Origin: Felis catus
Lineage: Eukaryota
Direction of reading: 5' to 3'
NCBI RefSeq assembly: GCF_018350175.1
Contig: NC_058368.1
Location: forward strand, 61,320,001 to 61,384,000
DNA length: 64,000 bases
A program made the position numbers and the translations under genes. Positions within the stretch are counted from its first letter, which is position 1. Each line of letters starts with the position of its first letter. Positions 13,500 to 46,919 of the stretch are shown here, in pieces. The notes beneath the pieces were generated by a model. That model saw only the letters and a list, made by a program, of their open reading frames with translations, did not search any database and was not told the DNA's origin.

Positions 13500-14750
13500 C
13501 CTAGAGAAGCCCTCATATGTATGCACAATGATATTGAAAAGAAGTATTTATTGCAGAATTAGACAACAAATAATTGGAAGCAAATACCATCAAGAGGAAA
13601 ATTAATTATGTATATCTGTAAAATGAAATATATCAGTGAAAGTAAATTATATAGAACTACATGTATCTATGAATACATGGATAAATCACATGGATAAATC
13701 ACATAAAGTTAATAGGTGAAATAAATAAATATCATGTATCTGACAATTTGTTGAAATTCTCAGTCATTACTGTTTCAAATATTCTTTCTCTTTTTCTTCT
13801 GGTATTTTCATTACACATACATTGCTTGTTTTATAGTTGTCCCACAATCCTCGGGTACTCTGTTCTGGTTGTTGTTGTTGTTTTTCTTCTTTTCTTTTTA
13901 GTATTTGTTCCCTTTTTAGTTTTGGAAGTTTTTACTGAGATATCCTCAAGCTCAGAGATTCTTTCCTTAACTGTGTCCAGTCTATTGGTAAGCTCATCAA
14001 AGGCATTCTTCAATTCTGTTTAGTGGTTTTTATCTCTAGCATTTATTTTTGTCTTTTTCTTAGGGTTTCCACCTGTTTGCTTATGTTATCTGTCTGTTCT
14101 TGCATGCTGCCTACTTTATTCACTAGAGCCTTAGCATATTAGTCATAGTTGGTTTGAATTCCCAGTGTCATAATTCCAATGACTCTGCCATGTCTGGTTC
14201 TGATGCTTGCTCTTTGTCTTCAAAATGTGCCTCTTTTTGTGCACCATGTAATTTTTTTTTCTTGATAGCCAAACATGATGTAATAGGTAAAAGAAACTGC
14301 TGTAAATAGACCTTTAGTAATGTGGTGGGGAGATGTGGGAGCAGAAGCATGCTATAGTCCTATGATTAGGTCTCAGGCTTTTAGTGAGCCTGTGCCTCTG
14401 TACTGTGAACTTCACAAATGTTACTCTGGAGTTTTGTTTGATTGGTTGGTTTTGGATTTTGTTTTCTTTTTTCTTTTATTTCTTCCTTTCCTCCCTCCTT
14501 AGGTGGGATGGGATGGCTACAGTGAGTTGGAGTTTTTCCCCCCTCGCCCAGGTTAATTAGGCTCTGATAATACCTGAATAGGTTGGGCCTCCAGTTAATT
14601 AGTTTTTCCCGAGGATAGACCTTAAGAACATAGTGCTCTGGTATATTTGAAAATGGTTCTTTTATCCCTCCTCCCTGCTGAAAGCATGAGGGGATTTTTC
14701 TCAGATATTACTGTATGGGCCTGGTTAAACTCCTAGAGGTAAATCTAACA

Positions 14751-14978
14751 GGGGTGCCTGGGTGGCGCAGTCAGTTAAGTGTCCGACTTCAGCCAGGTCA
14801 CGATCTCACGGTCCGTGAGTTCGAGCCCCGCGTCAGGCTCTGGGCTGATGGCTCGGAGCCTGGAGCCTGTTTCCGATTCTGTGTCTCCCTCTCTCTCTGC
14901 CCCTCCCCCGTTCATGCTCTGTTTCTCTCTGTCCCAAAAATAAAATAAAAAACGTTGAAAAAAAAATTAAAAAAAAAA
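14751..14978 (+). mobile_element. Young felid Can-SINE (trimer unit A)
   Basis: Diagnostic GGCGCAGTC, CAGCCAGGTCACG and GGGCTGATGG variants; CpG-rich. Confidence 0.97.
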
Positions 14979-14989
14979 GAATTAGGGGA

Positions 14990-15198
14990 GGAGCGCCTAG
15001 GTGACTCAGTCGGTTATGTGACCGACTTCAGCTCAGGTCATGATCTCACAGTTTGTGAGTTCGAGCCCCTCATCGGGCTCTGCGCTGACAGCTCGGAGCC
15101 TGGAGCCTGCTTTGGATTCAGTGTCTCTATGTCTCCCTCTCTCTGTGCATGCTCTGTCTCTCTCTGTCTTTCAAAAATGAATAAACATAAAAAAAAAA
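14990..15198 (+). mobile_element. Can-SINE of a different, more diverged subfamily (trimer unit B)
   Basis: Head GGAGCGCCTAGGTGACTCAG; GCTCAGGTCATG and GCTGACAG variants; lacks the CCCCTCCCCC segment. Confidence 0.95.
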
Positions 15199-15422
15199 GG
15201 GGCGCCTGCGTGGCGCAGTCGGTTAAGCGTCCGACTTCAGCCAGGTCACGATCTCACGGTCCGTGAGTTCGAGCCCCGCGTCAGGCTCTGGGCTGATGGC
15301 TCAGAGCCTGGAGCCTGTTTCCGATTCTGTGTCTCCCTCTCTCTCTGCCCCTCCCCCGTTCATGCTCTGTCTCTCTCTTTCCCAAAAATAAATAAACGTT
15401 GAAAAAAAAATTTATAAAAAAA
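15199..15422 (+). mobile_element. Young felid Can-SINE (trimer unit C)
   Basis: Near-identical to unit A and to the copy at 60127. Confidence 0.97.
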
Positions 15423-15508
15423 AAACTCCTAGAGGTAAATCTAACAATATTGTGGGTAACTGTCCCCCCCCCCACTCCCAGCCATGACCGAATCCACCTG
15501 GAGTTCTT

Positions 15509-15536
15509 TTTTTATTATTGTTTATTTATTTATTTT

Positions 15537-15569
<33 letters not shown>

Positions 15570-15719
15570 GTAGAAAGTGAGGGAGAGAGGGAATCTCAAA
15601 TAGGCTCTAGGGTGTCAATGCAGAGACCAACCCGGGGCTCAATCTCACAAATGGTGGGATCATGACCTGAGCCTATATCAGAAGTCAGACACTTAATTAA
15701 CTGAGCCACCCAGGTGCTC
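15509..15719 (-). mobile_element. Can-SINE with 15-bp TSD
   Basis: TSD CCACCTGGAGTTCTT at 15494-15508 and 15720-15734. Confidence 0.95.
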
Positions 15720-16644
15720 CCACCTGGAGTTCTTAACTCAGCTTTGCTCACACTGGGTCTCCAGCAATTTGTCAATTACAGTTCAAGGTTTTCTCCTTGG
15801 TCTTGGTTCCCTAAATGGTCTCTGCTCATGAGTTTCTGTGCCCGTAAGTTGTTATTCTCTATATTCACCTGCCTCTTCCATCTTGGGAGGAGTGATTTGC
15901 CCTGTATCCTCCCCTCTCTTATGTATCCTAGAAGAGTTGTTTTTTCAGTCTGTTCAGCTTATACTTGTTAGGACTTCATGTTCCAAAGGTCTTCCAAAGT
16001 CCTTATATGAGGAACCCAACAACACGTGGGGGCATAATGTTAAGGTATTATATTTACATGACAGTTGAAATATGCAAAATAGTAGATATTGTTTATGGAT
16101 ATAATAATAATATTTTTAATTACATGTTTAAAGACATGCATGAAAACTGCAAATTTAGGAGAGTAACTCTGGTAAGGGTGAAAAATGTAAATAGAGTATA
16201 AAATTAGTTAGGGCCACACAAGTTTCTTCCTTAGATCATGTTTGATCAATCATGTAATCATGGAAAAGTCTCTTCCAGTGGTCAGAGAAAGCCTTCCAAT
16301 GTGTATAGAAAGATCATTTAATTTCTTACTGTTTCTAATTTGATTTTGGTGACATATAATCATTTTAAAAACAAAAATCTGAGTCAATCAGCCTTTTAAC
16401 TCTGAAATTGACAAGGCAATCTGCTAAAACAGAAGGGAGGTGAAGGATACAAAAGGGAAAACCACTTCTCAATTCATTTATTTACTATTTACTACTCATT
16501 CATTTACTTTTTACATACTAATATAAAATAGTATTTACTAGGTTCTATGCACTAGGAAAATGAAATTTTAAATTAAGGCCTTTATTTCCTGAAACAGCCC
16601 TATTAGTCAGTCATATCTTCATTTTGCCAATGAGAACATGGAGA

Positions 16645-20441: not shown

Positions 20442-23400
20442 ATGGCATTAAATTCATATCTTTCAATAATAACTCTGAATGTAAATGGACTAAATGCTCC
20501 AACCAAAGGACATAGGGTGTCAGAATGTATTAAAAACAAAAAAAAACAAAAAACAAGACCCATCTATATGTTTCCTACAAGGGACTCATTTTAGACCTAA
20601 AGACACCTGAAGATTGAAAGGGGATGGAGAAATACTTACCATTAAGTATATGCCAGAAGAAAACTAAGGTAGCAATACTTAAATCAGACAAACTAGATTT
20701 TAAACCAAAGACTATAACAAGAGTTGAAGAAGGGCACTACATCATAATTAAGGGGCCTATCCAACAAGAAGATCTAACAATTGTAAATACTTATGCCCCC
20801 AACTGGAAAACACCCAAATATATAAAACAATAACAAATATAAAGAGGAGCGCCTGGGTGGCTCAGTCAGTTAAGCGTCTGACTTTGGCTCAGGTCATGAT
20901 CTCACGGTTTGTGGGTTCAAGCCTCACATCAGGCTTTGTGCTGACAGCTCACAGCCTGGAGCCTGCTTTGGATTCTGTGTCTCCTGCTCTCTCTGCCCCT
21001 CCTCCACCCCACTTGTGCTGTCTCTGTCTCCCCCCTGCCAAAAAATATAAATAAACATTAAAAAAAGAACAAACATATGGGGACTTATTGCTAATAATGC
21101 AATAATAGGAGACTTTAGCATTACACTTACAACAATGGACAGATTAAGCAGAAAAGCAACAAGGAAGTAATGGCTTTGAATGACACACTGGACCAGATTG
21201 ACTTAACAGGTATATGCAGAACATTTTATCCTAGGGCAGCAGAATACACATTCTTGGCAAGTGCATATGGGACATTCTCCAGAATAGAGCACATACTCCT
21301 TCACAAATCAGCCCCCAACAAGTCCAAAAATATTGAGATTATACCATGCATATTTTCCAATCACAATGCTATGAAACTTGAAGTCATCCACAAGAAAAAA
21401 TTCGGAAAGCCCTCAAGTACATGAAGTCTAAAGCACAACCTCCTAAAGAATGGATTAGTCAACCAGGAAATGAGCAGAGAAAAAAAATACATGGAAACAA
21501 ATGAAAACACAATGGTCCAAAACCTTTGGGATGCAGTAGAAGCAGCAATCAGCAGGAATTATATAGCAGTTCAGGCTAATCTCACAAAGCAAGAAAAATC
21601 TCAAATATGTAACCTAACCTGACACGTAAAGGAGCTAGAAAAGGAACAGCAAATGAAGAAGCCTAAAGCCAGCAGAGCAGAAATAAATGATATAGAAACA
21701 ACAATAACAAAAATGGTGGAACAGATTAATGAAACTACAAGCTGGTTCTTCGAAAGAATAAAATTGATAACTCCCTAGCCAGACATGAAAGATAAAGGAC
21801 CCAAATAAATAAAATCACAAATGAGAGAGGAGAGATCACAACCAACACCATACAAATACAAACAATTGTAAAAGAATATTATGAAAAATTATATGTCAAC
21901 AAACTGGGCAATCTAGAAGAAATGTATAAATTCCTAGCAACATATAAACTACCAAAACTGAAACAGGAAGAAATAGAAAATTTGAACAGACCTATAACCA
22001 GCAAAGGAATTGGATCAGTAATCAAAAATCTCTCAACAAACCAAAGCCCAGGGCCAGATGGCTTCCCAGGAGAATGCTACCAAACATTTAAACAAGAGTT
22101 AATACCTATTTTTCTAAAACTGTTCCAAAAAATAGAAGTGGAGGGAAAACTTCCAAACTTATTGCATGAAGTTGGAATTACCTTGATTCTAAAACCAAAG
22201 ACCCCACTACAAAAGAGAACTACAGGCCAATATCCTGGATAAACATGGATACATTTTTTTTTTTTTTTACATTAAAGGAATCATTCACCACGATCAAGTG
22301 AGATTTATTTCTGGGTTGTAAGTGTGGTTCAATATTTGCAAATCAATCAACATGATATGCCACATTAATAAAAGAAAGGATAAGAACTGTATGACCCTTT
22401 CAATAGATGCAGGAAAAAACATTTGACAAAATACAGCATCCATTCTTGATAAAAACCTTCAAAAAGTAGGGATAGAGGGAACATACCTCAACATCATAAA
22501 GGCCATATACGAAAGACCCACAGCTAATACACACTCAATGGGGAAAACCTGAGAGCTTTTCCTCTATGGTCAGAAATAGGACAGGAGTGAATACTCTTAC
22601 CACTGTTAGGCTGGAAGTCCTAGCCTCAGCAATCAGACAACACAAAAATAAATAAATAAATAAAAGCATCCAATTGGCAAGGAAGAAGTTAAACTTTCAC
22701 TCTTCACAGATGACCTGATACTCTAGTAGAAAACCCAAAAGACACCACCAAAAAAATTGCTAGAACTGATACACAAATTCAGCAAGGTCACAGGATATAA
22801 AATCAATGTACAGAAATCTGTTGTATTTCTCTACACCAGTAATGAGTCAGCAGAAAGAGAAATCAAGGAATTGATCTCATTTATAATTGCACCAAAACCC
22901 ATAAGATACCTAGGAATAAATCTAACCAAAGAAGTAAAAGATTTATATTCTGAAAACCACAGAGCACTTAGGAAAGAAACTGAAGACGACACAAAGAAAT
23001 GGAAAGACATTCCATGCTCATGGATCGGAGAAACAAATATTGTTAAAATGTCTGTATACAACCCAAAGCAATCTACACGTTTAAAGCAACCCCTATCAAA
23101 ATACCTCTAGTGTTTTTCACAGAACTAGAACATACAATCCTAGAATTTGTATGGAACTACAAAAGACACTGAATAGCCAAAGCAATCTTGAAAAAGAAAA
23201 AGCCAGAAACATCACGATTCCATACTTCAAGTTATATTACAAAGCTGTAGTCATCAAGACAGTATGTTACTGGCAAAAAGCAAACACATACATCAATGGA
23301 ACAGAATAGAATACACAGAAATCAACCCACAAGTATATAGTCAAGTAATTTTTCACAAAGCAGGAAAGACTATCCAATGGAAAAAAGACAGTCTCTTCAA

Positions 23401-24421
23401 CAAGTGGTATTGGAAAAACTGGACAGCAACATGCAGAAGAATGAAACTGGACCACTTCCTTACGCTATACACAAAAATTCAAAATGGATGTAATACCTAA
23501 ACGTGCGACAGGAAACCATCAAAATCCTAGAGGAGAACACAGCCAGCAACCTATTTGGCATCAGCGAAAGCATCTTCTTACTAGGCATGTCTCGAAGCAA
23601 GGGAAACAAAAGCAAAAATGAACTTCTGAGACTTTATCAAGATAAAAACTTCTGCACAAGAAAGGAAGTAATCAACAAAACTAACAGGCAACTTATGGAA
23701 CGGGAGAAGATATTTGCAAATGGTATATCTGATAAAGTGTTAGTAACCAAAATCTATAAAGAACTTATCAAACTCAACATCCAAAAAACAAATAATCCAG
23801 TTAAAAAATGGGCAGAAGACATGAGTAGACATCTTTCCAAAGAAGACATACAGATGACTAACAGACACATGAGAAAATGCTCAACATCACTCATTATCAG
23901 GAAAATACAAATGAAAACTACAATGAGATATCACCTCACACCTGTCAGAATGGCTAAAATTAATAACAGAGCAAACAAGAGGTGTTGAGGATGATGTGGA
24001 GAAAGGGAACTCTCTTACACTGTTGGTGGAAATGCAAACTGATGCAGCCACTCTGGAAAACAATATGGAGCTTCTTCAAAAAGTTAAAAGTAGAACTACC
24101 CTGTGATACAGCAACTATACTCCAAAGGATATGAAAATACTGATTTGAAGGATACATGCACCCCGATGTTTATAGCTGCATTATCAACAATAGCCAAATT
24201 ATGGAGAAGATCCCAAATATCCATCAACGGATGAATGGATAAAGAAGATGTGGTATATATATACAATGCAATATTACTCAGCAATCAAAAAGAATGAAAT
24301 TTTTTCATTTGCTAGAATGCAATGGAGCTAGATGAGTGGATGGAGCTAGAGAGTATTAGCTAACTGAAATAAGTCAGAGAGAGACAAATATGATATGACT
24401 TCGCTCATATGTGGAATTTAA
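20442..24421 (+). pseudogene. L1 ORF2p (endonuclease, RT, C-terminal Cys-rich region), disrupted
   Basis: MALNSYLSIITLNVNGLNAP start; SPGPDGF; FTDD at 22703-22714; YLGINLTK; decayed CWRGCGE..HCWW near 23983-24029; SINE insertion and frameshifts. Confidence 0.93.
20846..21068 (+). mobile_element. Can-SINE inserted in the L1 endonuclease domain
   Basis: Head GGAGCGCCTGGGTGGCTCAG; diverged TSD AACAAA(T/C)ATA. Confidence 0.95.
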
Positions 24422-25859: not shown

Positions 25860-26620
25860 CAAAAGCCTTTCATGTGTGAATTTCCATGAGAAAAGAGACC
25901 AAACCACCCTGAAAAAACTGTTTCCAGGTAAAGAAAATGTAATACAAGTATACCTGAGGAAGAAAGAGAGCGTATGTTCTGGTGTGTTGACTAGACCCAC
26001 CTGCATTCCTTTGCCTCCAAGGCACCCATTCCCTGACTGCCATGGGTGGTGGCTGCTGATGGCTTATCTTGAGTCTCTGATTGAGGTCTTCCTCAGCCAA
26101 AGGGAACTATCCTGATTAACATTATGTTCTTTTCCTAGTTGATGCAGGAAGGGAGACATTGGGCCTGTCTCAATTCAGACATCTAAGAAATACTATTTCA
26201 GAAAAAAATTAAAAAAATAAAAAAGGGGGCGCCTGCGTGGCTCAGTCGGTTGAGCGTCGGACTTCAGCTCAGGTCATGGTCTCGTGGTTTGTGAGTTCAA
26301 ACCCGCGTCAGGCTTTGTGCTGACAGCTCACAGCCTGAAGCCTGCTTCGGATTCTGTATCTCCCTCTCTCTCTGCGCCTCCCCTGCTCATGTTCTGTCTC
26401 TCTCTGTCTCTCAAAAATAAATAAGTGTTGAAAAATAATAAAAAAAAGAAAGAAAAGAAATACTATTTTAGGTTACTTTGAAACTGCCTCATAGTTGAGA
26501 TTTCCCCCGTTTCCCAATCATGTTTGTCTTGCTTCCTTACAGATGTTGTACCCAGGAGTGTGTCTGTTTGCATGTCTCAGAATTTCACAGCCTGTGTCCC
26601 AGAGAATCTGACCTCTGACA
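25860..26620 (+). mobile_element. Probable ERV-L 3' LTR (LTR16/33-like), interrupted by a SINE
   Basis: Follows the internal relic and ends TGTGTCCCAGAGAATCTGACCTCTGACA, similar to class III LTR termini. Confidence 0.45.
26225..26454 (+). mobile_element. Felid Can-SINE
   Basis: Full head, body and tail; TSD AAGAAATACTATTT at 26185-26198 and 26455-26468. Confidence 0.96.
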
Positions 26621-37378: not shown

Positions 37379-37604
37379 GGGGCGCCTGGGTGGCTCAGTA
37401 GGTTAAGCGTCCGACTTCGGCTCAGGTCATGATCTCGCGGTCCGTGCGTTCAAGCCCCGCGTCAGGCTCTGTGCTGACCATGCTGACCGCTCAGAGCCTG
37501 GAGCCTGTTTCAGATTCTTTGTCTCCCTCTCTCTCTGACCTTCCCCCGTTCATGCTCTGTCTCTCTCTGTCTCAAAAATAAATAAACATTAAAAAAATAT
37601 ATAA
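37379..37604 (+). mobile_element. Felid Can-SINE
   Basis: TSD AAAAATTACATAGTTT at 37362-37377 and 37605-37620; internal TGCTGACC duplication. Confidence 0.97.
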
Positions 37605-38271
37605 AAAAATTACATAGTTTATGTGCAATATTTTAGCATACTCTATTAAGCCATTTATTTTTATTTCAGAACCATATTGCCTACAAGGTGTTTTTATTTT
37701 TAATACTTGTTTGTATTCTTACTTTTGGAAGTACATGCTTTTTAGCCATATGAATTATTATCATATTTATTTTTTAGTGTATGTTAATCCATGTTTTTTA
37801 TGAATGAAAGATTTCATTAATCAAGGAAATGTGAAAAACAGTTTCAAGTGCATTTAAGTGCATTTATATTTATACACTATTTAATAAAGGAGTTTTAGGG
37901 AAAGAATTTCAGATTAGTTTTAAAACTGGTTAAACAACAGAGCAATAAGTGATGACTTTTGAAGTTTTCTTTTGCACTGGACAGAAATCATTTGCATCTA
38001 CAACAGGTAAACCTTTTCCTGTTAACCTCTGCTCTTACCGAGCTGTAAGATAGTTCAGTACATAGAATAGCATTTAAAGGTGCAAGACCAGTTTAACACT
38101 GAACGGAATAACAGTAATTGCTTTAATTTACTCCCAGGTTCTGCTAATTATTCTCATAGTCTAACCCTGTGCGACCACAAGTAATCTCCAGAAATTATTC
38201 ATGATCACAAAGGGCTGTCCTCATTAGGTTGGCCTATTTATTTCCATAAGTACAGCAAAACTATTCATCAC

Positions 38272-46209: not shown

Positions 46210-46419
46210 AAATTTTTTAAAAGTGTTTATTTTTTTGAGAGAGAGAGAGACAGAGTGTGAGTGGGGGAGGGGCAGAGAGAGGGAGACACAGAATCTGAAG
46301 CAGGCTTCAGGCTCTGAGCTGTCAGCCCAGAGCCCAATGCAGGGCTCAAACTCATGAACCATGAGATCATGACCTGGCCAAAGTCAGACGCCTAACCAAC
46401 TGAGCCACCCAGGCATCCC
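46210..46419 (-). mobile_element. Felid Can-SINE
   Basis: TSD TATAA(C/T)TTTATCATT at 46195-46209 and 46421-46435. Confidence 0.96.
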
Positions 46420-46452
46420 GTATAATTTTATCATTTAAAACTGAGCAGGGTT

Positions 46453-46670
46453 GGGGCGCCTGGGTGGCTCAGTCGGTTAAGCGGCCGACTTTGGCTCAGG
46501 TCATGATCTCGTGGTCCGTGGGTTCGAGCCCTGCGTCGGGCTCTGTGCTGACAGCTCAGAGCCTGGAACCCATTTCAGATTCTGTGTCTCCCTCTCTCTG
46601 ACCCTCCCCCATTCATGCTCTGTCTCTCTCTGTCTCAAAAATAAACAAACATTAAAAAAAATTTAAAAAA
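46453..46670 (+). mobile_element. Felid Can-SINE
   Basis: TSD AAAACTGAGCAGGGT at 46437-46451 and 46671-46685. Confidence 0.97.
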
Positions 46671-46919
46671 AAAACTGAGCAGGGTAAAATGGTTATTTAA
46701 AATAGAACTTCAGTAGCCCAAAATTGGAATTACAATATTCAAATTAGGCAAACATACAGTTTTCCTTCTGTGAGTGTAAGGGTCATATAGGTAGTATATA
46801 TCTTTAATAAGACAGGGAGAAGAAAGTAAAAACTGCTACTCTAAGCACAGCTGTGTATTTTAATTTATGTAAAAAAAAACTACAAAGGAGTAAATGATCT
46901 ATTACCCTTCATATGTGCT

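Follow-up and report, generated by a model that had tools for sequence, protein, structure and literature searches.

How did three Can-SINEs of unequal age come to lie inside a single TSD? In the window, by which we mean the whole 64-kb stretch of DNA analysed here, units A, B and C stand head to tail on the same strand between the two copies of one exact 24-nt direct repeat (Table 1). A sequence-only reading of this DNA had described three same-strand SINEs flanked by one perfect repeat, and both the positions and the letters are confirmed; the 24-mer occurs just twice in the window. Neither a protein gene nor a tRNA gene lies at the locus, as none of the 11 open reading frames of at least 120 aa and none of the three ARAGORN calls overlaps it.

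Table 1. Coordinates of the SINE units, the spacer and the direct repeats at the locus (positions in the window).
Feature	Coordinates	Strand	Remarks
Outer 24-nt TSD, left copy	14727..14750	+	exact repeat, two copies in window
Unit A, full-length young Can-SINE, subtype IIB (SINEC_Fc1-like)	14751..14978	+	subtype diagnostics as given in PMC4084570
11-nt non-SINE spacer	14979..14989	+	without partner in window
Unit B, older Can-SINE, subtype IIA (SINEC_Fc2-like)	14990..15198	+	private non-CpG changes
Candidate 12-nt TSD of C (AT+A10), left copy	15187..15198	+	built from B's tail
Unit C, full-length young Can-SINE, subtype IIB	15199..15422	+	tail A9-TTT-AT-An
Candidate 12-nt TSD of C, right copy	15414..15425	+	last three As are part of the outer repeat
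Outer 24-nt TSD, right copy	15423..15446	+	exact repeat

A chance origin of the outer repeat was ruled out: in 1931 control stretches of 700 nt (2000 were drawn and 69 skipped because they fell at the locus), the end of the left flank was matched over no more than 8 nt. The nick site, GTT/AAAC, departs by one base from the TT/AAAA consensus; the sequence-only reading had likewise compared TT/AAAC with the L1 endonuclease target. With the exact 24-nt TSD and the terminal A-run, the nick site makes up the hallmarks of an L1-mobilised insertion, all of which are present. Among 19 other SINE heads examined in the window, 14 have a repeat of 9–18 nt starting no more than 3 nt from the head, so that 24 nt is the longest; this length is covered by the TSD range of 4–25 bp quoted in PMC3783187 and exceeds the usual 7–20 bp quoted in PMC12458276. 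Unit A starts flush with the outer TSD, as expected for Pol III initiation. Its tail is separated from the right TSD by 444 nt, made up of the spacer, B and C, and the 3′ TSD is thus displaced by non-tail sequence, as in SINE 3′ transduction.

The three units belong to two subtypes. Identity between A and C reaches 96.2% over 185 nt, and a repeat comparison gives 205 shared nt at 95% identity, while B is about 80% identical to either. The diagnostic states are those of the feliform CanSINE subtypes IIA (SINEC_Fc2) and IIB (SINEC_Fc1) as described in PMC4084570: A and C carry the IIB states (the A-box G, and no T near position 51 of that alignment) and B carries the IIA states. These subtypes also mark the DNA as felid. 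B also has private changes at 6 of 80 non-CpG columns, against 0 of 79 in A and 0 of 79 in C (together 0 of 158; Fisher p = 0.0013), the columns scored being those with agreement among at least 11 of the 13 other copies. This makes B the oldest of the three units. The view that A and C are young and near-identical and that B is a more diverged member of a different subfamily is therefore upheld, and tandem duplication of one unit is rejected, since B is of another subtype. Two of the six private changes of B are each found in one other copy as well and may be source variants, perhaps inherited. Three of the six are G-to-A changes within the first 15 nt of B (14990–15004), a cluster that could reflect deaminase editing of first-strand cDNA; two changes recur in other copies, which makes this a weak case.

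Between A and C no age difference was detectable (5 of 130 versus 2 of 130 differences, p = 0.45), and C is hence not shown to be later than A. The outer TSD bears on the relative age of the insertion as a whole. A perfect 24-nt pair would be expected with a probability of 0.02–0.14 at 4–8% divergence and of 0.48–0.62 at 1–1.5%, and the outer insertion is more likely to be nearer A's age than B's. The two copies of the outer TSD show no decay, and B is thus unlikely to have made this TSD in its own time. An order in which B came first and A was added in front of it is rejected, because A lacks a TSD of its own and a TSD as old as B would hardly have stayed perfect.

The spacer between A and B has a single exact copy in the window, and five matches at up to two mismatches compare with 3.6 expected, which is chance level; the earlier statement that it has no partner copy stands. 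A local template was also sought, with a best local match of 8 of 15 nt, and a locally templated spacer is rejected on both counts. Joined to the As in front of it, the spacer resembles a SINE TSD in both length and form, those in the window being 9–18 nt long. Most likely, to judge from its form, the spacer would be B's left TSD from another locus. The joined spacer-B unit has one copy within the 64-kb window. Metagenome contigs, scanned for exact copies of the spacer-B junction and of the left flank with its TSD, yielded no match to either, a result that carries no information for mammalian DNA. A search of sequencing runs listed 24, the best sharing 0.73 of 113 words and most sharing 0.42–0.55, which says nothing about species, alleles or a donor.

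These features lead us to favour, tentatively and short of calling it probable, a reading in which A, the spacer and B would have moved as one read-through RNA, C being added here later; this and the other likelihoods that we attach to competing readings are judgements rather than computed values. At a donor locus, a young IIB copy would have inserted into the left-hand TSD copy of an old IIA element, so that the order became A-tail-spacer-B. Since A has only a TT remnant of a terminator, Pol III would then have read through the spacer and B, ORF2p would have primed on B's A-run close to the RNA's 3′ end, and a dimer of about 450 nt would have inserted with the 24-nt TSD. Such an insertion would amount to SINE-driven 3′ transduction, with a flank tag and an older SINE as cargo. 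A separate IIB copy, C, would later have entered B's A-tail and duplicated AT+A10, a step that is shown in part. The sequence-only reading had all three units travel in one read-through RNA. That argument holds for A-spacer-B, given that B is older, that the piece 5′ of it is an orphan, that its A box is changed and that the outer TSD is undecayed; it does not extend to C, which abuts B's A-run and has a candidate TSD of its own.

The promoter boxes and tails bear on this division of roles. B boxes are intact in A, B and C. Against an A-box consensus, which served as the scoring pattern, C passes and B fails by a G-to-A change at 15004, which fits the role of a passenger for B. A's own A box also fails, by a G-to-A change at the CpG at 14773, and this counts against the read-through of A-spacer-B, although the CpG change may postdate the insertion. 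The tail of A comprises two AATAAA motifs, a rudimentary TT terminator and a terminal A10, and that of B stops at its first A-run, without a T-run module. Young dog Can copies often have mere TT or TTT remnants, and priming is efficient only where no more than about 40 nt separate the A-tail from the terminator (both PMC9599045). Since priming needs an A-tail near the RNA end, B's distal tail would be favoured over A's.

Termination is less simple than had been supposed. The earlier claim that no run of four Ts occurs here is correct, T4 being absent between the outer repeats and first found downstream at 15507; it had missed, however, five partial Pol III terminators, namely three TGTTT (14868, 14920 and 15316) and two TCTTT (15167, in B, and 15376). 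In B2 constructs, TCTTT stopped 50% and TGTTT 20% of transcripts (PMC8466645). A naive product of these B2-derived, context-dependent values lets 0.32 of transcripts get to B's tail and 0.13 to the end of C. Some of the partial motifs may postdate the insertion.

Another point against joint transport of A, the spacer and B lies in the A-runs. T+A10+G is found at 14968–14979 and again at 15188–15199, so that T+A10 flanks spacer plus B (14968–14978 and 15188–15198), and B possibly entered A's tail separately. We therefore weighed an assembly at the present site, in which A came first with the 24-nt TSD, the spacer and B went into A's tail or were joined by template switching in the course of a single insertion, and C arrived last. 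In one variant, spacer and B would derive from a separate RNA starting upstream of B (a 5′-truncated read-through or a Pol II transcript) and would have been joined through A-run microhomology. Tripartite chimeras have indeed been ascribed to double template switching or to a later insertion into the 3′ end of the earlier one (PMC4476161), and felid CanSINE loci are often struck repeatedly (PMC4084570). Still, an old, promoter-changed B would have to move alone with a 5′ extension and to strike the tail of a young SINE, which accounts for about 2% of insertions for Alu (PMC3783187), while template switching is mostly reported for U6 and U6atac (PMC4476161). All three terminal A-runs at the locus are T+A10, yet young copies here most often end in A10 (three others have 10, 11 and 10), so that equal run lengths tell us little and both hidden TSDs, T+A10 as well as AT+A10, are weak. 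On balance we regard piecemeal assembly at this site as rather unlikely. The sequence-only reading had argued against stepwise tail insertion; its arguments from an older element within a younger one and from the orphan spacer are retained, while it had overlooked the hidden AT+A10 and T+A10 repeats.

Extra sequence within a TSD is seen a second time in the window. At 26185–26471 a IIA SINE (head 26226, plus strand) and, 5′ of its head, an A-rich stub of 24 nt lie together inside a 17-nt repeat that contains a single mismatch. The stub resembles a bare SINE tail, and the element is either a complete copy that nested in an insertion consisting of a tail only or a 5′-truncated read-through product. 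Extra pieces inside one TSD are accordingly not unique even in this window, and the A-rich sequence at 26226 also speaks in favour of piecemeal assembly at our locus.

C adjoins B's A-run directly and has AT+A10, a candidate TSD of low complexity, on both sides, and under almost every retrotransposition model it went into B's tail, whether here or at the donor. Among the four IIB copies, only C has TTT-AT ahead of its last A-run, the other three having TT, and this fits a duplicated AT; the IIA copy at 37379 also has AT before its last A-run. Where Alu has inserted into Alu, same-strand entry into a SINE tail is the most frequent class, with 20 of 961 insertions, a rate twice the uniform expectation yet in line with nick-site content (PMC3783187).

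Had C already been in B's tail at the donor, A-spacer-B-C could have been copied from one RNA of about 670 nt, as originally proposed. A single TSD encloses the three units, T4 is absent inside, A and C are similar in age and share one CpG-site A that is absent from two other IIB copies, and the hidden TSD of C is equally consistent with an origin at the donor. This RNA, however, would have to pass all five partial terminator motifs (by the same rough estimate 0.13, whereas the dimer scores 0.32) and skip two internal A-tails, one old copy would need to have received two insertions around it before the jump, and no sequence feature demands that C travelled with A and B. We consider transport of the whole trimer unlikely. 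It would differ from a read-through dimer only in where C inserted, and the sequence reads the same either way.

An origin at the DNA level would look no different. Ectopic repair or gene conversion, with a SINE-spacer-B-SINE cluster elsewhere as its source, could have expanded a single IIB copy here, or the assembly could have mis-joined two loci through near-identical IIB copies, and the 205 nt at 95% identity between A and C suffice for strand invasion or mis-joining. A ready-made cluster elsewhere would be required, though, and A and C differ both in their tails and in their private changes. Insertional gene conversions are, besides, rarer than retrotransposition. We hold such an origin to be very unlikely. 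Of all the readings, the most likely is a SINE dimer mobilised as one, into which a further copy nested later.

Other elements of the window illustrate further arrangements. About 50 nt past the right TSD of the trimer, an old minus-strand Can-SINE with a 14-nt TSD (15494–15734) forms an inverted pair with it, through a 71-nt arm that is 77% complementary to B. At 46238–46690 two SINEs stand head to head (heads 46419 on the minus and 46453 on the plus strand, 33 nt apart), each with its own 15-nt TSD, the upstream TSD copies lying side by side between the heads. The IIA-type SINE at 37379–37620 has an internal 9-nt duplication of its body, 11 retained CpGs and a 16-nt TSD, and appears as a young IIA variant. 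Finally, decayed plus-strand fragments at 20846–24000 (frames 21796–22242, 22730–23110 and 23494–23988), which we take to be L1 ORF2, adjoin a SINE at 20846.

Known precedents exist for SINE 3′ transduction, for compound SINEs and for nested insertions into tails, and the locus can be set beside each of them. As in Alu 3′ transduction, one TSD holds a Pol III SINE and, behind it, foreign sequence and an A-tail; here, by contrast, the SINE is a tRNA-derived T+ element, which has as its cargo an 11-nt tag and an older SINE. In its workings the locus resembles SINE 3′ transduction plus a nested insertion, and, a source locus being a defining feature of the former, it is a candidate member. Dog Can_b2, which alternates between T+ and T− forms, is similar in that TT or TTT terminators permit read-through and a flank or TSD can supply a new terminator; in those canid data, short tail modules are gained and no whole downstream SINE is described in the sections available (PMC9599045). 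The dimeric and trimeric SINE families (Alu, B4, Men, Tu II/III and Urop; PMC13023118) share the head-to-tail monomers, the A-rich linker and the need for a working promoter in the left unit only. These families are amplified, whereas ours is one locus, known from a single copy in the window. Tripartite L1-mediated chimeras and SINE-tail insertions likewise place several pieces within one TSD and carry the same ambiguity between one event and nesting (PMC4476161; PMC3783187); the chimeras as presented in PMC4476161 differ in that no snRNA or L1 part is found here and all units are full-length SINEs. Multi-insertion loci in the portions of PMC4084570 at hand have a separate TSD for each insertion, unlike the one TSD around three units here.

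Whether Pol III SINEs carry 3′ flanks at all is disputed. In T2T-CHM13, 386 Alu 3′ transduction events have been annotated, and AluSx-WaluSat is a further example from the same source (10.1101/2021.07.12.451456, as excerpted). A survey of 118,489 AluY confirmed no transduction, according to the parts available, which counts against a read-through of A-spacer-B, though it excluded cargo with another Alu (10.1101/2024.04.29.591526). SINE cargo, the class seen here, is the one left out by the AluY survey, going by the same parts of 10.1101/2024.04.29.591526. Our literature search, thin on subscription papers, found no published case of Can-SINE co-mobilisation, and the accessible portions of PMC11240701, PMC12941198, PMC12458276, PMC13756887 and PMC13103737 report no SINE transduction.

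At present the locus is a curious, small, single-locus example of known retrotransposon behaviour. It is a long shot, highly improbable in our judgement, that a felid source locus makes compound RNAs of Can-SINEs, either A-spacer-B or the whole trimer, and that several spacer-tagged siblings stem from it; that would be an incipient dimeric or trimeric family with a traceable parent, and a verifiable case of SINE-driven 3′ transduction. If a donor were identified, it would mean that terminator-less copies can remobilise old, promoter-damaged neighbours, and the case would provide a tag for tracing SINE source elements and exemplify a first step toward dimeric SINE families. A copy of an old subfamily could then occupy a young insertion site, which would affect SINE-based phylogenies.
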